From the NCBI RefSeq assembly GCF_028368995.1, contig NZ_JAQNDL010000002.1, positions 1,280,001-1,344,000 of the forward strand: DNA of 64,000 bases, written 5' to 3'. The DNA is from Nannocystis bainbridge. GTDB taxonomy: Bacteria; Myxococcota_A; Polyangia; Nannocystales; Nannocystaceae. Positions 3,640-63,991 of the stretch are shown here, in pieces; position 1 is the first letter of the stretch, and each line of letters begins with the position of its first letter. A program made the position numbers and the translations under genes. Under the pieces are notes generated by a model that was given only the letters and a program-made list of their open reading frames with translations, did no database searches and was not told where the DNA came from.

Positions 3640-5670
3640 ATGGCGGGCGGGGACGACGCGGCTGCGGGACATGTCCGGAAGGACAGGGCAGTCGAGGATG
3701 CTTCGGGACATGTCCTGAGGGACATGAGTGAAGATGCTCCGGGACATGTCCTGAGGGACAGTGACGAGGATAACTTCGGACATGTCCCGAGAGACAGCCA
3801 TCCCGCGCTCGCGGCGGGACATGATTTGCGGGCCCCGGGTGGCGGGGGGGATGCTTCGGCTCTGGGTCGGCGCGCTGCCGTCTTGCTGTTCGGGCCGGCG
3901 ATCGCGTGGACGCTGGTCGCTGCGGCCGGGCTCGGATGGGCCGGGGCGCGGGCGGACGCCTGGGGGCCCGCGCCGCGCCGCGATGCGCCGGTGGTCGGCT
4001 CCGAGGCGTGTCTGGCGTGCCACCCGACCCAGCACGCCAGCTGGTCGGCGACGTATCACCGGACGATGACGCAGCGCGCCGAAGGCGAGGCCGTGCTGGC
4101 GCCGTTCGCCGGCGAGCACGTCGACCACCTCGGCTTCCGCGCGACGATGACGCGCAGCGCCGCGGGCCGCCCGCACGTGCGCGTGAGGCCGCTCGACGAC
4201 GAGGGGCGCGAGGTCGGCGAGCCGCTGCTCGATGTCGAGGTCGTGATGACGGTGGGCAGCCACCGCTATCAGCAGTACCTGGCGCAGATCGACCGCGGCG
4301 GTGGGCCCGGCGAGGTGTGGCGCCTGCCGGTGGCCTGGCACGTCGCCACGGCGCGGTGGATCCCGATGAACGCGGCGTTCCTCGAGCCGGAGGGCGCGCG
4401 GGGCGACGCCGAGGCGTACCTGCGCCACCTCAGCCGCTGGAACGACAACTGCGTGCTGTGCCACAACACCGAGCCGCGGCCGGGGATGGCGCAAGAGACA
4501 GGTGAGGCGCCGCGCTTCGCCACCACCGTGGGCGAGCTCGGGATCGCGTGCGAGGCCTGCCACGGGCCGGCGGGCGCGCACCTGCAGCGGCACGCCGATC
4601 CGTTCCGGCGGCTGCTGGCCGGCGGGGCAGGGGACGGATCGATCGCGCACCCGGGCCGGCTGGTGACGCGCGACGAGAGCGGGGTGTGCGGGCGCTGCCA
4701 CGGCAACCGGATCAGCGCCGACGTCGCGGCGGTGCTGCGCGAGGGCGACGGGTTCTTGCCCGGGACGGACCTGGCGGCGGTTTCGCGCCCGATCTTCCGC
4801 GACGCGACGGTCGGCGGCGAGGCGCTGTTCGCCGAGCGCTTCTGGCCCGACGGGACGCCGCGCCTGTCGGCCTACGAGTACCAGGGGCTGCTGCTGTCGC
4901 CGTGCCACCAGGGCGGCCGTGAGGGCGGGCTCGGCTGCGACGACTGCCACGCGATGCACGGCGACGAGCCCGACATGCAGGTCCGCGGCGATCGCAAGGG
5001 CGCGCGGGCCTGTACTTCGTGCCATGTCCCCGAGGACATGTCCTCAGGGACACGTCACGGAGGACATGGCCCCACGGTCACGTGCCAGGGCTGCCACACG
5101 CCGCGGATCACCTACGGGCTGCTCGAGGGGATGATCGGCCACCGGATCGCGGTGCCGCGGCCGCAGGCGTGGATCGGGCGCCACGACCAACCGGACGCGT
5201 GCACGCAGTGTCACGTCGACCGCAGCCGCACGTGGGCGGCGGAGGCGCTGCCGCGGCTCGGGTTCCCGGAGGCGGGTCCGCTGCCGCCCGCGGCGCCCGA
5301 CGAGGGGTGGGGCTCGCGGGTGCAGCTCGACCTGGTCGGCGGCGATCCGCTGCAGCGGGTGCTGGCGATCCACGCGCTGACGCGGCCCGAGGTGCCGGTC
5401 GCGGCGTCCGAGCGGCGGGGGTGGATCACCGACGCGCTCGACGACGAGTACCCTGCGGTGCGGTGGTTCGCCTGGCGAGCGCTGGGGGAGCTCGCGGCGC
5501 CGGAGCAGCGCGCGCTGGTGGCGGCCTACGATCCGCACGCGGAGGCCGAGCGTCGGGTACCGGCCGCGGACGCCCTGCGCGCGGCGTTCGGGACCGGGCC
5601 GTTCAGCCCCGAGCAACGTGAGGCGCTCGAGGCTCGGCGCGAGCAGACGGTGCTGTGGATCGGCGAGTGA
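3640..5670 (+). CDS. Multiheme c-type cytochrome with C-terminal HEAT-like repeats (true start uncertain)
   Basis: Eight CXXCH motifs (CLACH, CVLCH, CEACH, CGRCH, CDDCH, CTSCH, CQGCH, CTQCH) plus SPCH, a hydrophobic signal/TM segment, and a HEAT-like LDDEYPAVRWFAWRAL. Confidence 0.88.
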   Translation: MAGGDDAAAGHVRKDRAVEDASGHVLRDMSEDAPGHVLRDSDEDNFGHVPRDSHPALAAGHDLRAPGGGGDASALGRRAAVLLFGPAIAWTLVAAAGLGWAGARADAWGPAPRRDAPVVGSEACLACHPTQHASWSATYHRTMTQRAEGEAVLAPFAGEHVDHLGFRATMTRSAAGRPHVRVRPLDDEGREVGEPLLDVEVVMTVGSHRYQQYLAQIDRGGGPGEVWRLPVAWHVATARWIPMNAAFLEPEGARGDAEAYLRHLSRWNDNCVLCHNTEPRPGMAQETGEAPRFATTVGELGIACEACHGPAGAHLQRHADPFRRLLAGGAGDGSIAHPGRLVTRDESGVCGRCHGNRISADVAAVLREGDGFLPGTDLAAVSRPIFRDATVGGEALFAERFWPDGTPRLSAYEYQGLLLSPCHQGGREGGLGCDDCHAMHGDEPDMQVRGDRKGARACTSCHVPEDMSSGTRHGGHGPTVTCQGCHTPRITYGLLEGMIGHRIAVPRPQAWIGRHDQPDACTQCHVDRSRTWAAEALPRLGFPEAGPLPPAAPDEGWGSRVQLDLVGGDPLQRVLAIHALTRPEVPVAASERRGWITDALDDEYPAVRWFAWRALGELAAPEQRALVAAYDPHAEAERRVPAADALRAAFGTGPFSPEQREALEARREQTVLWIGE

Positions 5671-5773
5671 GGGCCGCTCGTCGCGGGCCCTGGAAGCCCG
5701 CGCTCGCCCTGCAGGCGTCCGGGCCGTGAACTGAAGATTTGGCGGGCGAGCGGCCTGCGGCTAGATTCGCCCC

Positions 5774-6193
5774 GTGCGCGCCGAACGGCACCACCGGCTC
5801 TCGCTCGCCTTGCTGGCGGTCTTCCTCGCCTCGGGGCTGTGGCTCGAGGCGATGATCGGGCTGCGCGCGGCCGGGTGGGTCGACGATCCGCTGCGCCGCG
5901 AGTTCCTCCGCCTCGGCCACGCGCACGGCGGGCTGCTGGCGCTGGTCAACCTGGCGATCGCCTGGTCGCTCGGGCAGCTCGCCACGCCCGAGGCCTGGGC
6001 CGGCAAGATCCGCATCGCCGCGCTGCTCGGTGCCTTGCTCGTCGGCGTCGGCTTCATGGCCGGCGGGCTCACCCACGGACCGACCGACCCGGGGCCGCCG
6101 ATCCTCGTGGTGCCGGCCGGGGCGCTGCTGACTCTGGCCGCGGTGATCGCCACGGCGCTGGTCCGGCCCACCGATCGCCCGCCGGGGAGCTGA
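5774..6193 (+). CDS. Small integral membrane protein (about 4 TM) with GHAHG motif
   Basis: Four hydrophobic segments and a conserved-looking RLGHAHGGLL. Confidence 0.65.
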   Translation: MRAERHHRLSLALLAVFLASGLWLEAMIGLRAAGWVDDPLRREFLRLGHAHGGLLALVNLAIAWSLGQLATPEAWAGKIRIAALLGALLVGVGFMAGGLTHGPTDPGPPILVVPAGALLTLAAVIATALVRPTDRPPGS

Positions 6194-6295
6194 GCGCTCA
6201 GGCGGCGGGCGACCGAAAGCCGACCGCCTGCCTCACGCGTCCTCCCCATCGGGTGTCCGAAGGGGCATGTTCGAGAGGACATGTGCTTTCGACCC

Positions 6296-6328
6296 AACGA
6301 AAACGGCCGGGCTGGTGGGCCCGGCCGT
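6296..6328 (-). terminator. Probable intrinsic terminator of ftsH
   Basis: The minus strand reads ACGGCCGGGC-CCACCA-GCCCGGCCGT followed by TTTCGTT, just after the ftsH stop. Confidence 0.6.
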
Positions 6329-6345
6329 CGTCCTCGCGTCGCCGA

Positions 6346-8265
<1,920 letters not shown>

Positions 8266-8395
8266 GGTGAGAAGGTTCCAGAGCCGTGCCTGGAGCTTTG
8301 CGAGCATAGCGGAAGACGGATCGCCCGGCCAGCCGCGCAGGTCCGGAACGCGCACGCCGGCCGCTCTGCTCGCCGCCTGAGCCCGCGCGTCGGCG

Positions 8396-9424: not shown

Positions 9425-9453
9425 GCGCGTGCGGCGATGATACCTTCCCGCCG

Positions 9454-11196: not shown

Positions 11197-11224
11197 GGCC
11201 TCGCGCCGCGTGGCCGCGAGGACA

Positions 11225-11294
11225 TGCGCGTTCGGACATGCTCGAACGCGCATGTGCGCACGGACATGTCCGTTCGCGCATGCTCGATCGGCCA
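11225..11294. repeat. Phased array of five 14-bp palindromic units
   Basis: TGCGCGTTCGGACA TGCTCGAACGCGCA TGTGCGCACGGACA TGTCCGTTCGCGCA TGCTCGATCGGCCA, located between convergent genes. Confidence 0.85.
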
Positions 11295-11298
11295 GGTC

Positions 11299-14406: not shown

Positions 14407-14428
14407 GCGGGCGGCCGCCGCTCGCGCC

Positions 14429-14526
14429 TGTCGCAAGGAACATGTCGCAAAGAACCTGTTCGCTTCGCCCTGTCGTTTTCGCCCTGTCCCGACGTACCTG
14501 TCCCAAACGACCTGCCCCGAGGACCC
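14429..14526. repeat. Phased array of 6-7 degenerate 14-bp units
   Basis: TGTCGCAAGGAACA TGTCGCAAAGAACC TGTTCGCTTCGCCC TGTCGTTTTCGCCC TGTCCCGACGTACC TGTCCCAAACGACC TGCCCCGAGGACCC. Confidence 0.8.
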
Positions 14527-14527
14527 G

Positions 14528-15301: not shown

Positions 15302-15464
15302 AGCCGGCCTCGGAGGCGCTCGCGGGGCGCGAGGGCGCGGCCTGCGGTTCGGTCGCGGGGATTCGCGAGGACGCGAGGGGCACGGCCGTGAGGGCCGCGT
15401 CGGGTTCGCGCGTGCGTGGGCTTGGGTGCGAGCGCGCCGGTTCGGCGCACGTGCGAGGTGACGC

Positions 15465-16307
15465 GTGAAGCTGGTCGTGATCGTGACGGGGGCGAGCGGG
15501 GCGATCTATGCCCGCCGGGCGCTGCATGTCCTCGCGGACCTGTGCGCAGGGACAGGGTCGAACGAACCGGCGTACCCGGGCCTCGAGGTCGACTGGGTGG
15601 CGTCGGCGACGGCGCCGCAGGTGTGGCTGACCGAGCTCGGTGAGCCGATGCCGCTCGAGATCTCGGCCCACGTGCCGACGGTGACGGCGGGCGAGCCGGA
15701 CGAGCCGGACGAGCCCGAGGTCCCGCCAGCGCTGCCGAGCGCGACGGCGGCGCGGCGCGAGCCGGGGACGTCGCGGGCGGGGCCGCCGACCGAGTTCTTC
15801 GGCTCGAACGTGTTCGGGCGCATGAGCCAGGCGGTGACCCCGTCGGCCACGCCGACGCTGAAGGGGTCGGCGCGGGAGCCGGGGCCGGCGTCCGAGTCGG
15901 CGCCGAGCCGCGTGCGCCGGTGGGACCGCCAGGACTTCTCGGCCCCGTTCGCGTCGGGCAGCAACGCGCCCGACGCGGTGCTGGTGATGCCGTGCTCGAT
16001 GAGCGCGCTCAGCCGGGTAGCCCACGGCGGCGGCGACGACCTGGCGGCTCGCGCCTGCGAGGTCGCGCTCAAGGAGCGGCGGCGGTTGGTGCTGGTGGTC
16101 CGCGAGACGCCGCTCAGCCTGGTCCATCTGCGCAACATGGTGGCCGCGACCGAGGCCGGGGCGATCATCCTGCCGGCGGTGCCGTCGTTCTATGGGGCCG
16201 TGCGCACGCTCGAGGACGCGGTCGACACCGTGGTCGCGCGCGCGCTCGATCACGTCGGGCTGCGCGTGCCGCTGACCCGCCGCTGGGGCGATCCGGAGAG
16301 CGCATGA
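15465..16307 (+). CDS. ubiX: Flavin prenyltransferase UbiX with a long internal insertion
   Basis: TGASGA, APFASGS, MPCSM, LKERRRLVLVVRETP and PSFY motifs. Confidence 0.9.
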   Translation: MKLVVIVTGASGAIYARRALHVLADLCAGTGSNEPAYPGLEVDWVASATAPQVWLTELGEPMPLEISAHVPTVTAGEPDEPDEPEVPPALPSATAARREPGTSRAGPPTEFFGSNVFGRMSQAVTPSATPTLKGSAREPGPASESAPSRVRRWDRQDFSAPFASGSNAPDAVLVMPCSMSALSRVAHGGGDDLAARACEVALKERRRLVLVVRETPLSLVHLRNMVAATEAGAIILPAVPSFYGAVRTLEDAVDTVVARALDHVGLRVPLTRRWGDPESA

Positions 16308-17020
16308 CGCCCGCCGAGCTGGCGCGCCTGTTCGACCAGCCGGCCGAGGCCGGGGCCCGCGCGCAGGCGGCCCGCGCGAGCCATTTCGGGCGCCGGGTCC
16401 AGGTCCGCGGGACGCCGCCGCACCCGCCGCCGACCGTGGCGGCGCTGCTGCGCGGGGCGGGCCCGGTGGTGGTCGATCTTCCGGGCTGGTCTCAAGAGCA
16501 TGTCGCAAGGGCCATGGCCGATGCGACAGGGCGCTCGGGACATGCCGAATCGGACATGTCCTCGGGGACATGTGCGAGCGCCGCTCCCGGGTGGCCGGAG
16601 CCGGCGGCGCTGCGGGCCGGCGACCGCGTGGTGCTGCAGGTCGATCGGGCGCGGCTGGGCGACTACTTCGAATACCTGGTGCGCCTGGCCGCCGCGGCGC
16701 CGGAGGGGCTGTCGGTGGCGCCGTACTGCGCGCTGGCGGGCGGGCTGATGCGCCTGCACCTGATCGCGGCGGCGCGCGTGGCCCTGCCGGGGCGGGTGCG
16801 CGTCGAGGCGCGCCACGACTTGCTCGGCATCCGCCTGGCCCAGGTCGCGCTCGGGTTCGGCGCCGACACGCTGGCCGGCCCGCTGGCGCAGACCCGCAAG
16901 CTGCCGCTGGCCGGCGTGCCGCGGCCGGACGAGGCGACCCCCGCCGGTCTGGCGGCGCTGATCGAGCGGGCCGGGCTCGAACCTGTCCTTGACGACATGA
17001 CCTCGGAGACATTGCCATGA
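16304..17020 (+). CDS. Degenerate MqnE/MqnC(CofH)-like protein lacking the radical SAM cysteine motif
   Basis: The C-terminus LGIRLAQVALGFGADTLAG...LAALIERAG aligns by eye with neighbouring MqnE IGVKTAQIALSFGVDDLDG...LVRLIREAG. ATGA overlaps with both neighbours. Confidence 0.7.
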   Translation: MTPAELARLFDQPAEAGARAQAARASHFGRRVQVRGTPPHPPPTVAALLRGAGPVVVDLPGWSQEHVARAMADATGRSGHAESDMSSGTCASAAPGWPEPAALRAGDRVVLQVDRARLGDYFEYLVRLAAAAPEGLSVAPYCALAGGLMRLHLIAAARVALPGRVRVEARHDLLGIRLAQVALGFGADTLAGPLAQTRKLPLAGVPRPDEATPAGLAALIERAGLEPVLDDMTSETLP

Positions 17021-22325: not shown

Positions 22326-22436
22326 AGAGGGGTTCGTGAGGCTCGGAGCGCATCGGGTGGCGGGAGAACGGTCGGGCGACGGTGTCAGTCGCGGCATGAG
22401 CCCGGAGGCATGTTCGGGGCTGGTGTCGATCGAGCA

Positions 22437-22506
22437 TGTCTCTTTGGACATGCCCTTGTAAGCATGTCTGTCAGAGCATGTTCAAAAGGGCATGTCTGAA
22501 TGGACA
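22437..22506. repeat. Phased array of five 14-bp palindromic units
   Basis: TGTCTCTTTGGACA TGCCCTTGTAAGCA TGTCTGTCAGAGCA TGTTCAAAAGGGCA TGTCTGAATGGACA. Confidence 0.88.
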
Positions 22507-22528
22507 TGCCATCCGGGCACAAGCGAAC

Positions 22529-24277: not shown

Positions 24278-24380
24278 ATGAGACGCTTCCGCGGTCACCG
24301 AGCGCCGTCTCGAGGGACAGCTCAGTCGCTGCGAGTCACGGGTTCATCCTGTCCCGAGGGACAGGTGGACGCTCGCGGCC

Positions 24381-29364: not shown

Positions 29365-29377
29365 AGCTCCCAAGGCC

Positions 29378-29612: not shown

Positions 29613-29710
29613 GGCGGCGGCAGGATGCCTGTCCTGTTGGACAGGTGAGGGAACTCGAAGCGGGCCTGGCCTTTCGGACAGCTCGGCGTGCTGGCTTCGG
29701 AGGCTCTTCT

Positions 29711-31131: not shown

Positions 31132-31560
31132 TCACGGCGGCGTGGGCTCCCCGTCGGGACGCAGCGTGGTCTGGATGGACATGCCCGAAGCGACATGTCC
31201 GCGAGAACCGGTGAAGATGCGCGCCTCGGCAGCGGGGGTGCCGCGGTGGATGAGCAGCGCGACGGCGCTGCCGGGCCGCGAGCCGCCGTCGCGGAAGTGG
31301 GCCTGGACCTGGACGCGCCAGTGGAGGTCGTCGTGCTTCTCCATGCGGCAGGTGAAGCCGAGCATGGCGTCGTCGATGGGGCGCTGGCTCGGGACGTCGG
31401 ACGGGAGCACGACCCACCACCAGTCGTGCACGGCGGTGCCCTCGAAGACGCGGTAAAGCTCGCCGTCCTGGACGTTGGCGGCGTACGCCGACGGGATGGG
31501 TCGTGGCTCCGGATCGTCGCTGGTCCCCGCGAAGCTGCGCTGAGCGTCACTCTGATTCAC
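31132..31560 (-). CDS. Hypothetical protein
   Basis: Globular-looking composition, host codon bias, and GGAGG upstream of the start. Confidence 0.5.
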   Translation of the reverse strand: MNQSDAQRSFAGTSDDPEPRPIPSAYAANVQDGELYRVFEGTAVHDWWWVVLPSDVPSQRPIDDAMLGFTCRMEKHDDLHWRVQVQAHFRDGGSRPGSAVALLIHRGTPAAEARIFTGSRGHVASGMSIQTTLRPDGEPTPP

Positions 31561-32305
31561 GGCTCACCTCCCATGCGGCCTCTACGGTGAAGAAGGTCGG
31601 TGGCCGGGCAAGTGACTCGGGCTACCGGCGGCGTCGCGGGGCCGCCGCTGGCGAGAGCGCGGCGAGACGCGGTGATGCGCCAGGCCGGTCGCTTCGACCG
31701 CGGAACGTGGCTGTCGCAGGCCAGGCGCTGCGAGATCCGGCGGCGACGGCGACGGCGGCGAGGCGCGCCGATCCGCGCGAGCCGCGAGGGGCTCCGCACA
31801 GGCCGGGGTCGCGACCCGGCGCGCGGTTGCATGCGCGAGGGCGTGGGCGGCTGCGCGTGTGCTCGTTACGAGCGGTGGCCGGCATGTCCTTGCGGACATA
31901 TTCGCCCGCGGCCAGGGGCGCCGATCCTGGCGAGCCATGAGGGACAGCGCGCGGGGGGCCTCGCGCCAGGGCGTGCGCGAGGGCCTGCAAGAGGTTTTCG
32001 CTACGACTGAAACGCTCTCGCGTGTTCCTGCGGGCAGTCCCGCGTGCTGCTGCGCTCGTGGCATGTCCTTCCGGACATATTCGCCCGCGGCCAGGGGCGC
32101 GGCTCCTTGTGAGCCGTGAGGGACGGCCGCGCGGGATGGCCTCACACAATGGCGCGTGCGAGGGCCTGCGAGAGGCGCTCGGGGGCAGGAGAGGACGTCC
32201 GAGGCGGCGACGGAGGTGGTCCCCGAGGATCCCCAGGCGCTGCGGGTCGAGCGGATGACATGTTCGAAGGGGCATGTCCATGAGGACATGCTCCGAAGGA
32301 CACCT

Positions 32306-36309: not shown

Positions 36310-36603
36310 GGGCAGGCCTCGCTGGATCGCGGCGATCCGTCCCCCAGCATGGGCCGGCATCGCGGCGCGGCTCGCTCATTTCGCGTCGGTGTGACGGCGA
36401 CCGCGAAAGCTCGCAGGAGGGGCCGGCGGGGGCGCTGGCGGGCGAAATTGGAGGAGGGCGGGCGATGATGGGGCGAGCGGAGTGTGGCGGGCCCGACGGC
36501 GGTGGATGGCGAGGTCGCGCGGGGTGATGTGGGTCGTCGGCGAGGCGAAGGTGCGGCAGAGCACCCGGGTGGGCGAGGATGCGACGCGTGAACTGGCGAG
36601 GCG

Positions 36604-36912
36604 TCATCTGCTCGAAAGGACAGGTGCGCGGGGTGTGGTGGTGTCCGAAGGGACAGGCGTCATCTGCTCGAAAGGACAGATGCGTGGGGTGTCCGAAGGG
36701 ACAGGATCGTCTGCTCGAAAGGACAGATGGGTGGTGTTGTGGCCGTATCCGAAGGGACAGGATCGTCTGCTCGAAAGGTCAGATGGGAGGTGGTGTCCGA
36801 AGGGACAGGCGTCATCTGCTCGAAAGGACAGATGCGAGGGGTGTCCGAAGGGACAGGTGCGGCACCATCTGCTCGAAAGGACAGGGGCGATGGGCCTGTC
36901 CTGAAGGACAGG
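36604..36912. repeat. Alternating array of two 14-bp palindromic units downstream of mnmG
   Basis: TGCTCGAAAGGACA about 6 times, alternating with TGTCCGAAGGGACA about 5 times, ending with TGTCCTGAAGGACA. Confidence 0.9.
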
Positions 36913-36923
36913 CGGCGCCGGTG

Positions 36924-43321: not shown

Positions 43322-43710
43322 GCTCGAGCGGAGCTTCGACTGTAGTGAAGTCGGCCGGGCGGATCAACGTGGCGGGCGGCGGCTGCAGCTGACGTCAGGT
43401 CAGGCGCCCGGGCGGGGTGATGGCCGATCGGTGGGTCGTGTTCTGAGAGGGAAAGACAGCCCGCTCTGTCGTGGCGCGCGGGTGAAGCCGGGTGAGCGCG
43501 GAGCTCGGGCGAATTCTGTGTCGGCGCTGGAAGACCATGGGTCGCCGAGGCCACGGTTCGTGGCGCGGTCACGCGCGGCGTTCGCCTGGGCTTCGGTCGG
43601 GGCCGGGGTCCGCGGGTGCGCACGACGAGGCCGCGAGGACCGAGGCCGTCGCGGCGCGATGGGCGGCGGGATCGTCGCGGCGCGAGGCGATGCCGTGATC
43701 CGCAAGGACA

Positions 43711-43780
43711 TGGCCTGAAGCGCATGCTCTGAAGGACATGCCTTAGAGGACATGTCGTGATGGACATGGCGTGAGGGACA
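43711..43780. repeat. Phased array of five 14-bp palindromic units
   Basis: TGGCCTGAAGCGCA TGCTCTGAAGGACA TGCCTTAGAGGACA TGTCGTGATGGACA TGGCGTGAGGGACA. Confidence 0.85.
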
Positions 43781-45360: not shown

Positions 45361-46713
45361 TCAGTTGCGTTCGCCGGCGAGGATCGCCTTGGCGGCGTCG
45401 TGGCCGCTCTGGACCGCCGACTCGATCGTCGCGGGGAGGCCGGTGCGGACCCAGTCGCCGGCCATGTAGAGGCCGCGCACGGGGCCGGTGACTTCGGGGC
45501 GGCAGTGGTAGGTGCCGGCCGCGTGGGAGATGGTGGCGCGCTTCTCCTTGATGACCTTGAAGCGCTTGATCGCGGGACCCTGGGGGCCGGCGGCGGGGAA
45601 GTAGCGCTGCAGCTCGGACTGCAGCAGCGCCTGCAGGGTCTCGGGCGGGTCGTCGACGCAGGCCCGGGCGGCGCTGATCGTGCAGTTCATCATGGCCTCG
45701 CCGCCGACCTCGCCTTCGATGCGCGAGCGGTTGAACATCCAGTGCAGCGGGCCGGCGACCAGGCCGATGAACGGATCTTCGAACGGCGCGCGGTCGACCG
45801 AGAACCACAGGTTGACGATCGGCGACGGGCGCAGGCGGGCGATGTCCTGATAGACGGGGTGGCTCGGCAGGGCGCCCGGGAGCATGTCGAGGAAGGCCTG
45901 CGGGGGGACCGACGAGACGACCACGTCGGCCGCGAGGGTCTCGCCCGACTTGAGGGTGACGCCGGTGACGCGGGCGTTCGTGACCTCGAGCGCGCGCACC
46001 GGCTCGCCGAGGCGCAGGTCGCAGCCGCGGGCGCGCAGGTAGGCCAGCGCTTGCTCGACGTAGAGGCGCGACAGCGGGACCTTGGGCACGCCGAGGCGCG
46101 AGGCGTCGCGGCTGGTGAGGAAGGCGCGGTCGAGCACGGCGGTGAACATCGCCGCCGACGAGACCAGCGGGTCGTCGTTGAGGGTGCCCCAGATGAGCGG
46201 GTCCCAGAAGGCGTTGCGCAGGGTCGGCGTCTGGCCGAGGCGGCGCAGCCAGCTGTCGCAGGTCTCGTTGTCGTCGGGGCGCTGGACCTCGCCGCGCAGC
46301 ATGAGGCCGGCGCGCAGGGCCGCGGCCTTGTCGAGCAAGCCGAGGCCGCGCATCGTCAGCAGGCCGGTGGCGAGGTGCAGCGGCGCGGGCAGGGCCGGGC
46401 ACTGCAGGTGCAGCCGCTTGCCGCCCGGCTTCACCATCGTCACTTCGAGGTTCTTCTGGAAGTAGATGCCGTCGGTGCTGTCGATCGCGCGCAGGAACGC
46501 CAGGGTCTCGCGGTAGCAGCCCATCAGCAGGTGCTGGCCGTTGTCGACCTCGCGGTCGAGGGTGGAGTCGTGGAACGAGCGGGCCCGGCCGCCGCCGGCG
46601 CGGGTGGCCTCGATCAGGGTGACGACCCGGCCGGCCTCGGCCAGGCGCACGGCCGCGGACAGGCCGGCGAGGCCGCCGCCGATCACGATGACGCTGCGGG
46701 TGCTTTCGGACAT
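45361..46713 (-). CDS. hpnE: Hydroxysqualene dehydroxylase
   Basis: GGGLAGL, GGRARSF, DNGQHLLMGCY, KEKRAT, AGDW..TGLPATIESAVQSG motifs; follows hpnCD. Confidence 0.9.
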   Translation of the reverse strand: MSESTRSVIVIGGGLAGLSAAVRLAEAGRVVTLIEATRAGGGRARSFHDSTLDREVDNGQHLLMGCYRETLAFLRAIDSTDGIYFQKNLEVTMVKPGGKRLHLQCPALPAPLHLATGLLTMRGLGLLDKAAALRAGLMLRGEVQRPDDNETCDSWLRRLGQTPTLRNAFWDPLIWGTLNDDPLVSSAAMFTAVLDRAFLTSRDASRLGVPKVPLSRLYVEQALAYLRARGCDLRLGEPVRALEVTNARVTGVTLKSGETLAADVVVSSVPPQAFLDMLPGALPSHPVYQDIARLRPSPIVNLWFSVDRAPFEDPFIGLVAGPLHWMFNRSRIEGEVGGEAMMNCTISAARACVDDPPETLQALLQSELQRYFPAAGPQGPAIKRFKVIKEKRATISHAAGTYHCRPEVTGPVRGLYMAGDWVRTGLPATIESAVQSGHDAAKAILAGERN

Positions 46714-46796
46714 GACGGAAGGGACATTCTCGAGAGGACAGGGCCGAAGCGACAGGTCCGAATGGACATGTCCGCCCGGACAGGACGGTCAGGACA
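46699..46796. repeat. Phased array of seven 14-bp units filling the hpnD-hpnE spacer
   Basis: GACA recurs exactly every 14 bp, seven times. Confidence 0.85.
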
Positions 46797-47706
46797 GGAC
46801 GCTGGCGCCGGCGCGGGCCAGCGCGAAGGCGGCGACGCGCAGCTTGTCGCGGCGGCGCAGCGAGGCGCGGCGGGTGAACACGTTGTAGTTGCGGGCCCGG
46901 ATCTCCTGCAGGATCTCGTAGTAGGTGCGGCCCATGATCTCGGCCGGCAGCAGGCGGCGCTGCGGGATGTCCGGCAGCAGGGCCCAGGCGGCGTGGTACT
47001 CGCGCTCGGCCGCGGCGGCGAAGTCGGCCGCGGCGCCGACGAACCGGCCGTCGTAGCGGTAGTTGAAGATGTCGTCGGGCGTCAGGCCGTGGCGGGCCAG
47101 CAGCTCGAGCGGGAGGTAGATCCGGCCGCGCGCGGCGTCCTCGGCGACGTCGCGGAGGATGTTGGTGTACTGCAGCGCGAGCCCGAGGTGCTCGGCGTAG
47201 CGGCGGGTCTGCTCGCGCTGGTCCTTGAAGATGGCGACGCACAGGAAGCCGACGCACGAGGCGACGCGGTAGCAGTAGAGCCGCAGCTGCTCCATGTCGT
47301 CGTAGGTGCTGCGGTCGAGGTCCATCGCCACGCCGGCGATGATCTCGTCGAAGGCCTCGCGCGGGTAGTGGAAGTGCTTGTTGCTCTCGGCCAGCTGGCG
47401 CCCGAGCTCGGTGTGCGGCGGGTCGTCGTCGACGTAGGCGTCGCCGTAGATCCGCGCGACCTCGGCGCTCCAGAAGGCCAGCGCGCGGCGGGCCGACTCC
47501 TCGCCGACGGGGCCCGGCTCGCGCTCGTCGACGATGTCGTCGACGACGCGGCAGAACTCGTAGACCTGCTTGAGGCCCTCGCGCTGCTCGGGGCCCAGGA
47601 ACAGGAACGCGAACTTGAAGTTCGAGTTGGAGCGCTGGAGCAGGCGCCGCCACAGCGCCGCGGCGCCGCTCGGGATGGTGCGCGCGAGTTCCATGAACTG
47701 GGCCAT
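46789..47706 (-). CDS. hpnD: Presqualene diphosphate synthase
   Basis: SNFKFAF, FCRVVDDIVD, YCYRVAS and LQYTNILRDVAEDAARGRIYLP motifs. Confidence 0.88.
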   Translation of the reverse strand: MAQFMELARTIPSGAAALWRRLLQRSNSNFKFAFLFLGPEQREGLKQVYEFCRVVDDIVDEREPGPVGEESARRALAFWSAEVARIYGDAYVDDDPPHTELGRQLAESNKHFHYPREAFDEIIAGVAMDLDRSTYDDMEQLRLYCYRVASCVGFLCVAIFKDQREQTRRYAEHLGLALQYTNILRDVAEDAARGRIYLPLELLARHGLTPDDIFNYRYDGRFVGAAADFAAAAEREYHAAWALLPDIPQRRLLPAEIMGRTYYEILQEIRARNYNVFTRRASLRRRDKLRVAAFALARAGASVLS

Positions 47707-48782: not shown

Positions 48783-51037
<2,255 letters not shown>

Positions 51038-51041
<4 letters not shown>

Positions 51042-52033
51042 GCGAGCACCTCGACCGACGGATCGGGGCCGGGGCCGACGATGTCGACGGCGTGCACGCC
51101 GGGCACGTCGCGCAGGCGCAGCGCGAGGTCGTCGGCGTGGGCGGTCAGGCACAGCACCTTGACGTGCGGGCCGGCGTCGCTGGTGACGAAGCCCTGCAGG
51201 CCGTCGCCGCGCAGGCGCCACACGGCGTGGATGACGTCGAGGGTGGCGCCGCGCCAGTACACGATCGGCGGGCGGCTGGCCATCATGCAGGCGTGCATCT
51301 TGAAGCAGGAGTGCTCGAGGATGTCCCCGAGGACAGGTAGGTCGCGGGCCGCCAGCGCGGCCTCGGCGGCGGCGAGGTCGGCCTCGGAGGTGTCGACCCA
51401 CGGGCCGTAGTAGGGCGAGGTGTCGCGGCTGCGCTGCATGCCGGCGGTCGAGCCGAGCGACTTGGGGCCGCGCTCGGTGTGGACGATGAGCAGGCGGACG
51501 TCCCAGTGCGACTGCGGCTGCAGCGGGTAGGCCCGGCAGTCGCTGCCGTCGGGCTGCACGCCGCGGTCGAGGCGGACGAAGCCGCCCCACAGCGAGCGCG
51601 CGGCCGAGCCGGAGCCGCGGCGCGCCAGGGCCGACAGCGCGGGGCGGCCGGGCTCGTACTCGAAGGCGGCGGCGGCGGCGAGGGTCAGGGCGGCGAAGCC
51701 CGAGGCGCTGCTGGCCAGGCCGGCGGCCGTCGGCAGGTGGTTGTGCGAGGTGACGGCGCAGGTCGGACGCGCACCGGCGTGACCGGCGGCCTGCCACATG
51801 CGATCGAGGTGGCGCATGACCTTGGCCGCGACCTCGCCCGAAGCTGGCTCTTGGTTCAGGTGGAACGAGTCCTGCTCGCCGGGACCGACGGTGGTCACGC
51901 TGCGCAGGTGATCGAGGGTCAGCGACAGCGAACCGACGGCCGGCAGATTGAGGTCGGCCGGCGACGCGTCGCGCTTGCCCCAATACTTGACGAGGGCGAT
52001 GTTGGTATGGGCGACGGCCCGGGCGCTCTTCAT
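51038..52033 (-). CDS. mvaD: Diphosphomevalonate decarboxylase
   Basis: NIALVKYWGK, PTAAGLASSASG, RRGSGSAARS and DAGPHV motifs. Confidence 0.95.
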
Positions 52034-54249: not shown

Positions 54250-54319
54250 TGACCGATCGGGCATGTCCGATCGAGAATGTTCTGAAGGACATGTCGTGAG
54301 GGGCATGTCCCAAGGGGCT
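54250..54319. repeat. Phased array of five 14-bp units upstream of the mevalonate operon
   Basis: TGACCGATCGGGCA TGTCCGATCGAGAA TGTTCTGAAGGACA TGTCGTGAGGGGCA TGTCCCAAGGGGCT. Confidence 0.8.
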
Positions 54320-55778: not shown

Positions 55779-55968
55779 GGCCGGGCCGCGGGCCGCGAGG
55801 CGTGGCGTCCGCGTCGGCGGCGTCGGCGGCGTCGACGGGGTCGGCTTCGACTTGGGTGGGCGGCCGAGCGCGCGCACGTCGGCCCTCGCCAAGCGAGGTC
55901 GCAGCGCCGCGCCCGCGGGCGTTCGCCGCGGTTGCGCGCGGCGGGCGAGTCGCGCTACGGATCGGCCG

Positions 55969-57094: not shown

Positions 57095-57247
57095 GCGGCA
57101 GCGGCGAGCCCTCGCAGCAGCGAGGCGCACGAGCGGCAGCGGCGAGCCCTCGCAGCAGAGGCGCACGAGCGGCAGCGGCGAGCCCTCGCAGCAGAGGCGC
57201 ACGAGCGGCAGCGGCGAGCCCTCGCAGCAGCGAGGCGCACGAGCGGC
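57095..57247. repeat. 36-bp tandem repeat, about 4 copies
   Basis: Unit GAGGCGCACGAGCGGCAGCGGCGAGCCCTCGCAGCA, with 2-bp indels. Confidence 0.88.
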
Positions 57248-57336
57248 TGCACCGGGCGCGCTCGCCGGGGGCGAGGTGCGGCGGGAGCTGTCGGCGAGCG
57301 AGCGGACGCGGCCCGAGGAGTGGCGAAGTTCGAACC

Positions 57337-57406
57337 TGTCGCATGGGGCATGCCGTAAGGGGCATGTCCCTTCGCGCATGTCGCGAAGAGCATGTCCCGA
57401 CGAACA
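57337..57406. repeat. Phased array of five 14-bp palindromic units
   Basis: TGTCGCATGGGGCA TGCCGTAAGGGGCA TGTCCCTTCGCGCA TGTCGCGAAGAGCA TGTCCCGACGAACA. Confidence 0.85.
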
Positions 57407-57409
57407 TGC

Positions 57410-58753
57410 TCAAGCGTTCAGCTGAAACACGGCGTCCTCGAGCCAGTCGTTGAGGAACACGCCGCCCGGATCGAGGGCGGCGCGGTGGGCCAGGAAGGTG
57501 TCCATCTCCGAGTAGCGCTCACGGACCGCGCGCGGGTGCAGCAGGTACTTGCCCCAGTGCGGGCGGGCGCCGGGGATGGCCAGCATCTCGGCGCTCCACT
57601 GCGCGTAGAAGGCGTCGGCGTCGCGGGCCGAGCGGGTGGTGACGACCTCGATGTCGCAGATGGCCCGGCCGTGCGCGGGGGCCAGCAGGGCCGCGCTGGG
57701 GCCGATGAAGCGGGCGTGCACCACCATGTTGACGGGGAAGCTGGCGGCGCGGGCGAGGCGGTCGATGAGGCCGATCGTGCGCCGCCAGGCCTGCTCGGCG
57801 TCGGCCAGCGGGACGCCGTACGACATGTCCCAGCAGCGCGGGTAGGCCCGCTGGTAGTGGAAGGCGCGCGAGGCCGGGGCGACGGCGCTGCCGGAGGTCA
57901 TCGACAGGTGCGGGGCGAGCTGCATGAACGCGGGCGTGAGCTCGGGGGCGACGCGGCCCAGCAGCGGCAGCACGCCGTTGCACCCGGCGTAGGTGCAGGC
58001 GTAGGTGAAGGCGAACTTGAGGCGGTCGGCGACGGTGGCCCCGCGGTCGGGCTCGTCGGTGCGGCGCATCAGCTTGCACCACAGGGTGTCGGTGAAGGGG
58101 AACCAGTAGAGCTCGACGAATTCGTAGGTGGCGAGCAGGTCGGGCAGGCCGCCGAGCACGTCGTCGACGCCGATCCGGCGGTCCTCGACGTGGAGGTGGA
58201 ACTCGGGCCAGCAGCGCATGGTGACGTCGTGGACGACGCCGAGCGCGCCGAGCGAGCAGCGGGCGGCGTCGAACAGCGAGCCGTCGGCGGCGCTCAGGTG
58301 ATGGACTTCGCCGCGCGCGTCGACGAGGGTCAGGGCGACGACCTCGTCGGACATGGTCGAGGTGTGGAGGCCGGTGCCGTGGGCGGCCACCGCGATCGCG
58401 CCGCCGACGGAGATGTCCTGGAAGATGGTCGGCGTGATCAGGGTGAGGCCGCGGGCCTGGGTGAAGCGGACCAGGTCGCGCACGGTCGCGCCGGCCTCGA
58501 CGCGGATCGCGGGGGCGCCGTCGAAGCGGGTCTCGTGCACGCGGCGGAGCCGGCCGAGATCGACGAGGCTGCCGCGCGTGGGCACCAGCGGGCTCCACGA
58601 GCACGAATTGCCGACAGCGCGGATCCGGCCCGAGCGGCCGGCGCAGCGCACCGCCTCACGCAGCTCGTGAAGATCGCCGGGGCGGTAGAGGTCGGCGGTG
58701 CACGCCAGGTTGTCGTTCCAGTTGCGCCACTGGTAGTGCGGGATCCGGTCCAA
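57410..58753 (-). CDS. FAD-linked oxidase, aldonolactone oxidase (ALO/GULO)-like
   Basis: WRNW, VEAGAT, ISVGGAIAVAAHGTG, SLGALGV, ELYWFP, RPHWGK and LDPGGVFLN motifs. Confidence 0.85.
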   Translation of the reverse strand: MDRIPHYQWRNWNDNLACTADLYRPGDLHELREAVRCAGRSGRIRAVGNSCSWSPLVPTRGSLVDLGRLRRVHETRFDGAPAIRVEAGATVRDLVRFTQARGLTLITPTIFQDISVGGAIAVAAHGTGLHTSTMSDEVVALTLVDARGEVHHLSAADGSLFDAARCSLGALGVVHDVTMRCWPEFHLHVEDRRIGVDDVLGGLPDLLATYEFVELYWFPFTDTLWCKLMRRTDEPDRGATVADRLKFAFTYACTYAGCNGVLPLLGRVAPELTPAFMQLAPHLSMTSGSAVAPASRAFHYQRAYPRCWDMSYGVPLADAEQAWRRTIGLIDRLARAASFPVNMVVHARFIGPSAALLAPAHGRAICDIEVVTTRSARDADAFYAQWSAEMLAIPGARPHWGKYLLHPRAVRERYSEMDTFLAHRAALDPGGVFLNDWLEDAVFQLNA

Positions 58754-58763
58754 GGTCGGCTCG

Positions 58764-60666: not shown

Positions 60667-60809
60667 TGACCTCGAGGACAGGTTTCGAAGAGGCTGTCTC
60701 TTGAGTCATGTCCTGCGGTGCGCCGCGCGAGCTACGAGATGACCTCATGGACATGTCTCCAGGGACATGGCGCGAGCGACAGGGCACATCGGACATGACC
60801 CCGGGGACA
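60667..60809. repeat. Two phased arrays (3 and 5 units) of the 14-bp palindrome
   Basis: From 60740: TGACCTCATGGACA TGTCTCCAGGGACA TGGCGCGAGCGACA GGGCACATCGGACA TGACCCCGGGGACA. A second array lies at 60667-60708. Confidence 0.82.
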
Positions 60810-60811
60810 TG

Positions 60812-63800
60812 TCACGCGGTGCGGTGGCGGCGGGTGAACGAGCGCAGCAGGGCGGCGATGTTGCCGCGGACCTGGGGGTCGGTGCTGAGGCGGTAGCCGG
60901 GGGTGCGCATGGCGGCCGGAAGCAGCGGCAGCAGCGTGTCGTTGAGCTTCTTCTCGGCGCGGGCGTCGATGATCTTCTCGAACATGTCGGCGACGACGGT
61001 GTCGCCCTCGAAGTCGATCGAGAAGCGGGCGTCGCCGAAATTGTAGTGCAGGCCGCAGATCAGGAAGTTGAGGCGCGCCGGGCCGTCGACCAGGAGCGCC
61101 GGATCGGCGCCGATCCGCAGGCCGCCGTCGTCGAGGCGCAGGCGCACGCGGGTGCCGGGGAGCAGCAAGATGTCGACGAGGTGGTGGTGGAACAGCACGA
61201 GCCGGCCGCGGTCGTCGACGGGGAAGCGGTCGAGCAGGCCGCGCACGCCGGAGGCGCTCGGATCGCCGACGTCGCCGATCTGGCGGCGGATGATGGCCTC
61301 CACCAGAGCGTTCTCGAGCTGGCCGAGGCCGCCGACCTGGACCTCGCCCGACTGCAGGTGATAGCGGGCGCCGCGGAGCTGGATCGCCAGGCGCAGGCCG
61401 GGCATGCGCGCCGAGAGGCCGCGCTCGCTCTCGAGGGTGACCTCGACCTCGTTGGCGGTCAGGGTGACGCTGTCGGCCGGGTCCATCAGCAGCGCGAACT
61501 CGCCGTGATCGCCGGGCAGGCGGGCCGCGAACACGGCGATGCGCGTCGCGTCCTCGGGCGGGGCCGGCGGCATCGGCGGGCGCGGCAGGCCGAGCCGCTG
61601 GGCCCAGACGGGCGGCAGGCGCGGGGCGGCGAGGACCTTGTAGAGGTGCGAGAGCACGGCCTCGGTGACGGGGCTGACCGCGGCGGCCTCGTGGTAGTGC
61701 TCCTCGGCGATGCCGCTGATCGCCAGCTTCACGGCGGCGTCGCCGGCCCGCAGGCTGAGGTCGTGGAGGTAGAAGTCGGGCAGCCAGTCGAGCGAGCCGT
61801 CGGTGACGAACAGGCCGGCGGCCGAGCGCAGCGACACGCCGTCCTTGTCGAGGTGGAGGTCGATCGAGCCGCCGCGGGCGACGCAGATCTTGAGCGGACC
61901 CCACGGCTTGTCGGCGCCGAGCGCCAGGAGGGTGTCGTGGCCGGCCCGCGGCGAGCGATCGCTGGGCCAGAAGTGGCGCATGAACGCGGCGAACAGGGTC
62001 CGCATGGCGTGGCTGAGCAGCTGCTGCGACAGCTCGCCGGCCGGCGGCGAGGCGTCGATCACCAGCGTCCACGGCAGGAAGGTGAGGTCGATGGTGCGCA
62101 CGGTGAGCGTCAGGCCGAGGCCGAGGATCCGCACCGTGGCGCCCTTGCCGAAGGCGATGTGGGCGCCGCCGCGGCCGAGCGAGAGGTCGACGGTGCGGGC
62201 CGCGTCGGCGCTGACGCGCACGGCCCCGAGCGCGCCGACGGTCTGCTCCCACACGACCACGCCGGGCGCGGCCGGCAGCGGCGGCGGGATCGGGGCGGCG
62301 GCCGGCAGGGCGAGGCGATCGAGGATGTCGGCGAGCCGCTTGTCGGGGACGAAGCGGGCGAACAGCCGGCGCAGGATCTCGTGCACCAGCGGCCCGCTGG
62401 GCGGCTGGCTCACCAGCTCGATCGCGGCGGCGCCGGGCCGGTAGCGCAGGCCTTCGAGGGCGACGTCGGCCAGCAGGTCGGTGCCCTCGGCGACGAGCTG
62501 CAGCGGGGCCTCGGCGCGCAGCTCGAGCGCGTCCGGGCGCCGCTCGAGCCGCAGGCCGGCGCCGGGCGGCAGCTCGAGGCGGACGCGGACCCGCTTCGAG
62601 CTGTCCCTTGGGACCTGCGCCAGGAGCCACGTCTCTTCGGGCAGCTGCGGCGGCGCCAGCGGGAGGTGCGGGCGCAGGCGGGTCAGCCCGAACTGCTCGA
62701 CGCAGCGGGCCACCAGCTGCGACAGGTAGTCGCCGAGCGGCGGCTCGCTGGCGGCGCGCAGGCTGGTGGTTGCGATGTCGTGGTCGAGCGCGGCCAGCCG
62801 CAGGACCAGGCCCAGCTCGGGGGCGACGACGGCGAGCCCGCGCGCGCTGGTGAAGCCGAGCTCCGCGGGCGCGAGGCGGACGGCGAGGGTGTCGTCGGGG
62901 TCGAAGCGGACGTCGAGCGGGCCGACCACCGGGACGCGGGTGCTGGCGAGCAGGGCCGAGGGCAGCGCTTCGAGGCCCTGCTGGGGGCCGCCGTCGCGGC
63001 GCACGCCGAGGATGTCCGGAAGGACAGGTGCGGCGCGGACCCGGATCAGCTGGGCGAGGGCGAGGTCGCCGAACTCGCCGAGCGCGGGGCTGGCCTCGGT
63101 GACGACGCTGCCGTCGTGCCAGCGGTACTCGATCCGGTGGAGGTCGATGTCGGGCAGGACGGACAGGCCGCGGAAGCGCAGGCGCAGGCCGGCGGGGGCC
63201 TCGACGACCAGCGCGCCTTCGCCGTGGCGGACGTGGACCTCGCCGTCAGGGTCGGTGGTCAGGCGCACGCCGGTGCGCGGATTGAACGGCTGGTCGAGGA
63301 TCTGCAGCTCCTCGGCGTCGCGCTCGTCGAAGAGGCCGAGGCGGCCCAGCAGGGCGGGCGACAGGCGCGGCAGCACGCGGGCGTCGACGACCCGGCGGAG
63401 CAGCGCGCGCATCAGCGGACCGAGCGGCGGGTCGGTCTGGATCTCCAGGCGGACCCGCGGCTCGACGCCGGCGACGGCCGACGGGGCGCCGACGAGGACG
63501 GCCCGGACCAGGCGCAGCTCGGCCAGCTCCGGCAGCTCGTCGGCGTGCACGGCGAGGCCGCCGGGGGCCTCGAAGCGGAACCCGCCGGCGGCGCGGGTGA
63601 GCAGCAGCTCGCGGTCGCCGAGCAGCGCCAGCTCGCCGCGGGCGCCGAGCGGGATGCGGGCCAGCACGCGGGCGCCGGACGGCGGCTGGCCGGCGTGCAG
63701 CTGGCCCGGGATGATGTCGGCCAGGCGCGCGCGCAGGCCGACGGGCGCGGCTGGCGTCGCGGACATGTCCGTCGGGGCATGTCCGTTGGGACCTGTGCCG

Positions 63801-63991
63801 ACGGGCATGTCGGAAGGAGCATGTCCTTCGAGACCTGCGCCCACGGGCATGTCGGAAGAGACAGGCGCGCCCGCGGCATCGCGCTGCTTGCCGCGGCGCG
63901 GGCGCTTCTGGCCGCGGAGCCGGCGCACGAGGTCCTCGACGCGGACGCGGCGCTGCTCGTCGGCGAACAGGTCGTAGCCGGGGATGGTCAT
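60812..63991 (-). CDS. Large hypothetical protein made of about 8 beta-strand/helix modules
   Basis: 1059-aa ORF with host codon bias, internal repeats, and no signal peptide or recognisable catalytic motif. Confidence 0.8.
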   Translation of the reverse strand: MTIPGYDLFADEQRRVRVEDLVRRLRGQKRPRRGKQRDAAGAPVSSDMPVGAGLEGHAPSDMPVGTGPNGHAPTDMSATPAAPVGLRARLADIIPGQLHAGQPPSGARVLARIPLGARGELALLGDRELLLTRAAGGFRFEAPGGLAVHADELPELAELRLVRAVLVGAPSAVAGVEPRVRLEIQTDPPLGPLMRALLRRVVDARVLPRLSPALLGRLGLFDERDAEELQILDQPFNPRTGVRLTTDPDGEVHVRHGEGALVVEAPAGLRLRFRGLSVLPDIDLHRIEYRWHDGSVVTEASPALGEFGDLALAQLIRVRAAPVLPDILGVRRDGGPQQGLEALPSALLASTRVPVVGPLDVRFDPDDTLAVRLAPAELGFTSARGLAVVAPELGLVLRLAALDHDIATTSLRAASEPPLGDYLSQLVARCVEQFGLTRLRPHLPLAPPQLPEETWLLAQVPRDSSKRVRVRLELPPGAGLRLERRPDALELRAEAPLQLVAEGTDLLADVALEGLRYRPGAAAIELVSQPPSGPLVHEILRRLFARFVPDKRLADILDRLALPAAAPIPPPLPAAPGVVVWEQTVGALGAVRVSADAARTVDLSLGRGGAHIAFGKGATVRILGLGLTLTVRTIDLTFLPWTLVIDASPPAGELSQQLLSHAMRTLFAAFMRHFWPSDRSPRAGHDTLLALGADKPWGPLKICVARGGSIDLHLDKDGVSLRSAAGLFVTDGSLDWLPDFYLHDLSLRAGDAAVKLAISGIAEEHYHEAAAVSPVTEAVLSHLYKVLAAPRLPPVWAQRLGLPRPPMPPAPPEDATRIAVFAARLPGDHGEFALLMDPADSVTLTANEVEVTLESERGLSARMPGLRLAIQLRGARYHLQSGEVQVGGLGQLENALVEAIIRRQIGDVGDPSASGVRGLLDRFPVDDRGRLVLFHHHLVDILLLPGTRVRLRLDDGGLRIGADPALLVDGPARLNFLICGLHYNFGDARFSIDFEGDTVVADMFEKIIDARAEKKLNDTLLPLLPAAMRTPGYRLSTDPQVRGNIAALLRSFTRRHRTA

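Follow-up and report, generated by a model that had tools for sequence, protein, structure and literature searches.

The window analysed here, i.e. the whole 64-kb stretch of DNA, is interspersed with a 14-bp palindromic unit, TGTCC-N4-GGACA, which occurs singly, in abutting pairs and in phased arrays. A 36-bp tandem repeat (3661..3797), each copy of which contains GGACA plus TGTCC-N4-GGACA (exact units at 3672, 3711 and 3747), is located between the end of a kinase gene (3626) and a cytochrome gene. The multihaem cytochrome CDS (3640-5670, forward strand) harbours a four-unit array in frame (5011..5073), and two to three units (6254..6288) adjoin the GC hairpin and T-run terminator of ftsH (6346-8493, reverse strand) in a convergent intergenic region. 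An array with five CATG in phase (11211..11287), the position and phase of which are unchanged in five relatives, separates the convergent genes for a DUF6178 protein and an HtrA-like protease. Between the polyprenyl synthase gene and ubiE, a one-sided variant (14429..14525, forward strand) consists of CCTGTC/CATGTC direct repeats with a 14-bp period and is well conserved in five relatives. A double unit within a flavoprotein gene (15527..15554; gene at 15465-16307, forward strand) is likewise conserved in relatives. It is followed by a six-unit array (16494..16577), in a region that varies from 393 to 699 bp among relatives and contains 42-bp (three-unit) tandem copies in genome G001, and by a double unit with three mismatches (16984..17011). 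Two plus six units (22390..22513) are flanked by convergent genes and lie beside a terminator-like GC hairpin.

Single units were found just past the stop codon of a VanW gene (24350..24363, CCTGTCC-CGAG-GGACAGG) and in a convergent intergenic region (29630..29643). They are followed by two units conserved in four relatives (31175..31202), two single exact units (31885 and 32064, within 31885..32077) and an array of three to four units (32254..32302) a few nucleotides from the stop codon of a PD40 gene (32306-35431, reverse strand). Just past the stop codon of mnmG, 48-56-bp tandem repeats (36599..36914) contain one unit each, the exact ones at 36642, 36690, 36794, 36842 and 36897. Arrays with five CATG in phase adjoin the stop codon of a decarboxylase gene (43704..43780; gene at 43786-45063, reverse strand) and that of an ALO/FAD oxidase gene (57344..57413; gene at 57410-58753, reverse strand). 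Between these two, the window contains one-sided GGACAGG repeats with a 14-bp period together with a palindromic double unit (46699..46800, the latter at 46755-46796), conserved in relatives; a double unit with one mismatch (49452..49479); a single exact unit within the diphosphomevalonate decarboxylase gene (51322..51335; gene at 51038-52033, reverse strand); and a four-unit array (54257..54312), in place of which relatives have two units. The ORF at 60812-63991 (reverse strand) has a five-unit array at its stop codon (60740..60816), a single exact unit inside (63013..63026) and a seven-unit array within the open frame (63752..63856). The last probably marks a gene boundary, since length differences among relatives at this site are not multiples of 3. 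The only match to Rfam 15 (gathering score) in the window was a tRNA (30922-30994), and no known RNA family was matched at the units.

The initial annotation had described a recurring 14-bp unit joined end to end in exact phase, and both statements proved correct. The window contains 20 exact copies against 0.08 expected, a number reached in none of 100 shuffles, and 24 matches to the double unit (two abutting units, at most three mismatches) against 0.00 expected; across the 11-Mb genome, 1987 exact copies compare with three of the reversed control. Neighbouring units join via a common CATG, and CATG-CATG spacings in the genome peak exactly at 14, 28 and 42 bp, being counted 3736 times at 14 bp (72 at 13 bp, 262 at 15 bp), 2073 times at 28 bp and 1586 times at 42 bp. 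Altogether, 1071 arrays of at least three units were detected in the genome. Spacer length is strict (1987 exact units with N4, 16 with N3, 5 with N5), as is abutment (956 with N0, 11 with N1, 14 with N2), and the unit centre contains 53 % A+T in a genome of 71.5 % G+C. T-runs are absent from the unit and from the array edges. Among the 14 loci previously listed as phased, 12 are true tiled arrays, 11 of the 14 matching the double-unit pattern (at most three mismatches) and the one at 57337 displaying five CATG in 14-bp phase; that at 14429 is the one-sided variant, and that at 37303 is unsupported, being native mnmG coding sequence without an insertion relative to another genus. The remark that centres differ between units, arguing against simple tandem duplication, also holds: adjacent units have 4.42 of 10 variable bases in common versus 4.11 of 10 for random pairs, and 2.2 % are near-identical. 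Adjacent units thus hardly resemble each other beyond random pairs and are not fresh tandem copies. A full-text literature search retrieved no description of this repeat family.

Relative to gene calls defined as longest ORFs passing a crude GC3 filter, arrays start at a median of 30 nt past stop codons. Fully intergenic arrays (684 of 1071) comprise 458 between convergent versus 39 between divergent genes. Arrays occupy 401 of 1092 convergent and 304 of 2742 co-oriented intergenic regions, while the 39 in divergent position are spread over 1314 regions (~3 %). Of the exact units, 701 of 1985 fall inside ORF calls, corresponding to a density of 0.08 per kb in genes versus 0.53 per kb between genes. 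The earlier view that arrays also reside within CDSs and do not favour promoters is therefore sustained, but it had missed the strong bias to positions just past stop codons. Arrays border 185 genes at both ends, a set too large to be telling. All five contigs bear arrays (0-22 per 100 kb), their frequency is unchanged at the GC-skew switch, and no leading/lagging or ori/ter bias was detected genome-wide. Canonical hairpin+U terminators were predicted in 140 of 1092 convergent regions, specifically in 58 of 401 array-bearing versus 82 of 691 array-free ones, from which it follows that arrays neither substitute for nor shun such terminators. A terminator scan of window positions 1-20000 yielded seven versus 4.2 expected, none of them at arrays, and the ftsH array lies past the gene's own terminator.

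The comparison with related genomes suggested by the initial annotation revealed enrichment of the unit in each of the 23 genomes belonging to three genera (g1, g2 and g4; 67-2090 per genome). A protein scan matched named organisms at a distance only, the best being Enhygromyxa salina at 65 %, which places the source in Myxococcota. Outside the three genera, 13 of 14 genera are at background, and one (g32) is slightly raised (5-20). The single unit is older than tiling, which is derived in one subclade. Identity versus five relatives amounts to 0.89-0.95 for CATG (a value partly built in, since an array was defined as a chain of exact CATG), 0.79-0.82 for fourfold sites, 0.72-0.81 for the arms and 0.51-0.59 for the spacers. 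Arrays retain position and phase at orthologous loci. One in-gene array grew in situ, in phase and at unchanged length.

Whether the signal is carried by DNA or RNA was addressed by analysis of arm pairing and folding. For interior units (869 four-CATG windows), odds ratios of Watson-Crick matched variants are 0.70, 1.16 and 1.22; for all 3736 units they favour pairing (1.7-1.95); and at position 3-12, G-T combinations on the sense strand outnumber A-C ones (232 vs 149). The arms covary weakly or inconsistently. The folding energy of real arrays is -0.475 kcal/nt versus -0.450 kcal/nt for arrays of random units, i.e. only ~5.6 % better (350 of 435 arrays tested). Constraint thus acts on the sequence, with pairing barely selected. 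As RNA, arrays nonetheless reach a mean of -0.45 kcal/nt (z -4.6, n=120 arrays), and the array at 22390..22513 reaches -46.3 kcal/mol (z -7.1, folded as 22425-22515); an RNA-level role may be considered in view of these very stable predicted hairpins. Half-sites are evenly divided between the two strands with respect to transcription (top/bottom 460/473 and 365/427 in co-oriented intergenic regions), one-sided arrays in intergenic regions show no clear strand bias relative to transcription, and spacer tetramers are about as common as their complements. The symmetric flanks ACATGT and GCATGC are under-represented (odds ratio 0.31); two half-sites around one CATG, with centres 3 bp apart, may clash sterically.

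Tentatively, and with a chance we place somewhat below even, the units are interpreted as cooperative sites of a putative dimeric dsDNA-binding protein that mark the ends of transcription units. Such a dimer, inherited vertically in the three related myxobacterial genera, would read TGTCC-N4-GGACA while leaving the A+T-rich centre unread, and the common CATG would let dimers sit every 14 bp (four helical turns per three units) in a cooperative manner. Sites would build up in free sequence, mostly right after stop codons and especially between convergent genes, with some in tolerant parts of genes and promoter regions kept clear; in one subclade, single sites would have been elaborated to arrays of 3-20 units. 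Their role may be that of a boundary, roadblock or supercoil-handling site at the ends of transcription units. The dimeric protein invoked in the initial annotation is in so far upheld as the unit behaves as a rigid, two-fold symmetric dsDNA site; the likeness to occlusion or macrodomain systems fails, because arrays are present on all contigs without ori/ter restriction, and the system is not one of nucleoid occlusion. The concentration of arrays at gene 3' ends is a REP/BIME-like placement and counts against the protein reading. The more specific version, in which a clade-specific protein would coat phased arrays at about one third of convergent gene pairs and so create transcription-unit boundaries by roadblock termination or supercoil insulation, appears rather unlikely.

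A doubtful but serious possibility is that the units function as REP/BIME-like nucleic-acid structures, forming 3' UTR RNA or extruded DNA hairpins that stop read-through and protect mRNA 3' ends. Adjacent decamers would then provide 10-bp stems with 4-nt loops, and the common sequence would reflect spread rather than a reader. Like the REPs and BIMEs of enterobacteria and pseudomonads, the units are short palindromes present in hundreds to thousands of copies, often clustered, largely past genes and between convergent genes, and lineage-specific in sequence. The start of arrays shortly after stop codons, their preference for convergent over co-oriented and divergent regions, the scarcity of canonical hairpin+U terminators, the strong RNA folds, the modest covariation across all units and the G-U-compatible excess on the sense strand at one position all agree with such structures. 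For E. coli, a preprint reports terminator and stabiliser functions of REPs (bioRxiv 10.64898/2026.03.23.713779). The units differ from REPs in being only 14 bp long with a free centre, in tiling in strict register through a common CATG, in having about one third of exact copies in ORF calls and in lacking a RAYT: Y1 transposases (IS200/IS605-like; PF01797) had no match in the genome (90.5 % complete), the control being positive in 6 of 14 genomes, and RAYT-driven mobilisation was therefore rejected. Hairpins also leave unexplained why the loop is fixed at four and abutment is exact despite unrelated loop sequences; pairing is barely selected, canonical terminators are neither replaced nor avoided, and the ftsH array follows an existing terminator. 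Spread linked to insertion sequences was likewise discarded, as IS and long repeats are few (40 merged long-repeat intervals, most with two to three copies or contig-end duplicates). A GST-like two-gene module, rich in arrays and located at contig ends, was considered as a driver but turned out to be an assembly duplicate.

Molecular drive without site function, i.e. biased uptake, repair or conversion creating the motif and copies persisting where tolerated, is improbable. It would accommodate the presence of units both within and between genes, a possible origin in situ by substitution and the clade-wide distribution of the motif, and the uptake sequences of other bacteria also gather as inverted pairs at gene ends. 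Drive alone, however, accounts neither for the exact 14-bp tiling nor for the avoidance of divergent regions, and CATG is conserved above fourfold sites. DNA uptake sequences are contiguous asymmetric 9-12-mers; the units share with them over-representation in and between genes but are spaced palindromes with a free centre, a form in which uptake sequences are not known. Very improbable is a MITE-like small mobile element inserting pre-formed arrays that then expand by 14-bp slippage. In its favour, comparison with a distant congener shows the array at C1:1406232 to be an insertion, genomes G005 and G001 contain 14-bp and 42-bp tandem copies of recent origin, and the cytochrome gene is 15 bp longer at its array. 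Against it, array edges were found to have neither conserved flanks nor target duplications, neighbouring units are rarely alike, one or more arrays formed in place, and no transposase candidate was found in the genome.

For the putative dimeric reader, several candidates were rejected. The PadR operator is ATGT-N8-ACAT; PF03551 had no match in the genome, the control being positive in 14 of 14 genomes, and a literature search for the units as a PadR motif found nothing. A LexA paralogue was rejected, since every genome encodes a single LexA, be its unit count 2 or 2000. The Verrucomicrobia LexA box, TGTTC-N4-GAACA, has the same 5-4-5 geometry and differs by one base per arm, but the units are not in SOS promoters and LexA copy number does not track them. 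An autoregulated binder was dismissed too: small genes that have a unit on their promoter side number 32, and only three of them encode regulators (MarR, ArsR, TetR), a share typical of the background. No candidate reader thus emerged from the LexA genes, judged by phyletic pattern, or from the genes with promoter-side units, judged by their share of regulators.

Cooperative tiled operators are known from MetJ met-boxes, Fur boxes and omega heptads, where short symmetric repeats also abut in exact phase and dimers bind side by side. These operators sit in the promoters of one regulon or plasmid, whereas the present units, with ~2000 exact copies and 1071 arrays throughout the genome, stay clear of promoter regions. 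With Noc/NBS, SlmA/SBS, MatP/matS and ParB/parS, the units share dispersed palindromic chromosomal sites and a dimeric reader (putative here). Those proteins have tens of isolated sites that are biased in chromosome position; the units are tiled, far more numerous, evenly distributed over contigs and tied to gene ends. The nucleoid protein CdbA of Myxococcus xanthus, present in all Myxococcales, has more than 500 moderately specific sites with a G+C-rich direct repeat in two parts 4 bp apart (PMC7156744); compared with these sites, the units are inverted, have an A+T-rich centre and are confined to three genera. Intrinsic terminators share the hairpin potential of the arrays, but the latter have no U tract and coincide with none of the terminators scanned in window positions 1-20000.

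How transcription units end and convergent genes are insulated in very G+C-rich bacteria with genomes of 10-13 Mb is poorly understood, and classic hairpin+U terminators are rare in the present genome. If the protein reading is true, a phased-array boundary system would be previously undescribed and would operate genome-wide in bacteria largely lacking such terminators. The ~1000 arrays of sharply defined geometry could render protein reading and hairpin function separable at the bench. As a REP-like repeat family without RAYT, the unit of which predates tiling, they also provide, from single sites to arrays, a natural series for studying the rise of dispersed repeats. At 16 loci with single units from other genera, gene context was mixed wherever the G+C-based ORF caller worked, i.e. 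outside the lower-G+C genome. No pure-culture RNA run was found to contain the region, of which small shares turned up in metagenome contigs only, and the single match in viral contigs is a plain duplication in coding-like sequence.

The excess of the 14-bp palindrome TGTCC-N4-GGACA in the window and its 14-bp periodicity, both claimed in the initial annotation, were borne out. The window contains 20 exact units (0.08 expected) and 24 pairs of abutting units with at most three mismatches (0.00 expected). Genome-wide, the spacing between CATG motifs, one of which marks each junction of abutting units, peaks at 14 bp (3736, versus 72 at 13 bp and 262 at 15 bp) and recurs at 28 bp (2073), 42 bp (1586) and 56 bp (751). 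Overall, the genome of N. bainbridge (11.05 Mb, 5 contigs, G+C content 71.5 %) harbours 1987 exact units, the N4 spacer being rigid (N3, 16; N5, 5), and 956 copies of the junction GGACATGTCC, with abutment likewise fixed (N0, 956; N1, 11; N2, 14). The unit centre has an A+T content of 53 %. Chaining of in-phase CATGs, by which arrays were called, yielded 2074 chains, 1071 of them with at least three units and none with more than 20. Arrays terminate in a half unit (TGnCC), past which no conserved sequence was found at their edges; hence, TGTCC-N4-GGACA represents the unit, tiled via a shared CA/TG. Twelve of the 14 phased loci initially listed are true arrays; the exceptions are 14429, a one-sided CCTGTC repeat of 14-bp period, and 37303, which was rejected as native mnmG coding sequence without insertion relative to another genus. 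The longest array (20 units; contig C3, 1237915–1238181) is located between co-oriented genes and has unusually A+T-rich spacers. Around single array CATGs genome-wide, symmetric ACATGT/GCATGC is rarer than ACATGC/GCATGT (odds ratio 0.31); 6-bp palindromes may be avoided, or sites that overlap may impose a steric trade-off.

Arrays are confined to few genomes. Four in-phase CATGs occur 869 times in N. bainbridge, 409–527 times in five close relatives, 1–13 times in five more distant congeners and, outside the genus, 22 times in one genome (G061, with arrays likewise between convergent genes) and 1–10 times in three others; the remaining 58 of the 73 family genomes have none, and the reversed control pattern is absent from all 73. 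A scan of another 400 genomes from the phylum yielded matches in just 15 (1–5 each), and those listed are all plain tandem repeats. The single unit was detected in all studied genomes of genera g1 (114–2090; 11/11), g2 (87–169; 5/5) and g4 (67–696; 7/7) and at 5–20 copies in g32, with 13 other genera at background (0–11 versus 0–7 for the control). This far wider spread indicates that the unit is older than its tiling.

Genes were called crudely by taking the longest ORFs (≥80 codons) and filtering on GC3, which covered 76–79 % of the genome; on this basis, 684 of the 1071 arrays lie wholly between genes. By gene orientation, 458 array positions are convergent, 352 co-oriented and 39 divergent, the genome offering 1315, 3976 and 1314 such regions, respectively. 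Counted by region, 401 of the 1092 convergent regions contain an array, as do 304 of the 2742 co-oriented ones. Arrays start at a median of 30 nt past the upstream stop and 242 nt ahead of the next start. No leading/lagging bias (143/1331 versus 161/1411) and no ori/ter pattern were observed along the contigs; the even chromosomal spread lends no support to the proposed likeness to occlusion and macrodomain systems. Single exact units are less confined in position: of 1985 classified, 701 locate in ORF bodies (clear cases in the window being 5025/5039 in a cytochrome gene and 51322), 169 within the initial 10 % of called ORFs, where starts are often over-extended, and 579, 425 and 111 in co-oriented, convergent and divergent regions outside ORFs. 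Their density is 0.08 per kb in ORFs versus 0.53 per kb outside.

The window encodes ordinary housekeeping functions (ftsH, tilS, mnmG, menaquinone and mevalonate pathway genes; best named relative of MnmG, Enhygromyxa salina, 65 %) and is syntenic with the five relatives at ~90 % identity. Across the syntenic span, each genome has 9–11 arrays, almost all shared, and arrays keep their place and phase with respect to flanking anchors; the sequence between CATGs (10 bases) diverges widely and unit number varies. With about half of array positions alignable, identity to N. bainbridge is 0.89–0.95 for array CATGs, 0.72–0.81 for arms and 0.51–0.59 for spacers; at fourfold sites, it is 0.79–0.82. 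Recent duplications of 14 or 42 bp are present but rare, and only 2.2 % of adjacent units are near-identical (random pairs, 0.3 %), upholding the initial view that units are not simple tandem copies. One in-gene array arose without length change relative to distant congeners, another represents an insertion, and that in the cytochrome gene adds 15 bp. At 55779–55911, N. bainbridge lacks an array and has an intergenic length of ~140 bp, versus 472–882 bp in three relatives (G001, G007, G010) with 4–5 units right behind the same stop codon, probably due to a deletion in N. bainbridge. Flanked by arrays, an identical gene pair (GST-like protein, small secreted Cys-rich protein) occurs at contig ends C2:1–3617 and C5:707284–720618, the most likely cause being overlap in the assembly or a large repeat.

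Two-fold symmetry, spacing fixed to the base, a free centre, conservation of sequence rather than pairing and inheritance within a clade are best explained by a putative dimeric protein binding double-stranded DNA, an explanation we hold at somewhat under even confidence; tiling would fit cooperative binding of dimers side by side. Half-sites and spacer words are strand-balanced relative to transcription, except for one arm position (sense strand, G-T 232 > A-C 149), and arm covariation has odds ratios of 1.7–1.95 across all 3736 units and 0.70, 1.16 and 1.22 for interior units of long arrays. A REP-like role of the arrays as RNA or DNA structure, less likely in our view, would agree with their gene-end placement and strong hairpin potential: as RNA, arrays fold at -0.45 kcal/nt (z -4.6; n = 120), and 22425–22515 at -46.3 kcal/mol (z -7.1). 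Artificial arrays built from units drawn at random from other arrays fold nearly as well (-0.450 versus -0.475 kcal/nt; of 350 real arrays, 57 % outperform their random counterparts, p = 0.002), so that fold strength derives almost wholly from the consensus. Protein binding and a structural role need not exclude each other. The repeat family is a new variant among dispersed palindromic repeats; should a coating protein at transcription-unit ends be found, this would constitute a new kind of system.

As for known candidates, the myxobacterial nucleoid protein CdbA binds a G+C-rich direct repeat and is present in all Myxococcales (PMC7156744), and on both counts does not fit. LexA was rejected as reader, each genome encoding one irrespective of unit count. 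The N. bainbridge genome has neither Y1/RAYT transposases, which are tied to REP/BIME repeats, nor PadR, and few long repeats. Regulators among small genes with a promoter-side unit (3 of 32) do not exceed background. Rfam searches of the window matched no family at arrays, the sole match being a tRNA gene (30922–30994), and full-text literature searches retrieved nothing relevant on the motif or on such repeats in these bacteria.

Strict hairpin-plus-T terminators are equally frequent in convergent regions with (58/401) and without (82/691) an array, and adjoin arrays at ftsH and at the SPOR-domain gene. Such terminators are scarce genome-wide (140 of 1092 convergent regions); window positions 1–20000 contain 7 (4.2 expected). 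Downstream of the SPOR-domain gene (22508–22735), a 45-bp unit with a G+C-rich terminator-like hairpin is present in ~5 copies, versus one in each of the five relatives. Further tandem repeats comprise an intergenic 60-bp repeat (24089–24263; 2.9 copies, 91 % identity), each copy closed by GGCATGTCTTATAA, 34-bp and 84-bp repeats (29374–29600), rich in GGCTGAGG / CTTCGG and situated between convergent genes, and a 36-bp repeat (57095–57247; 4.1 copies, 96 % identity) directly before the array at 57344.
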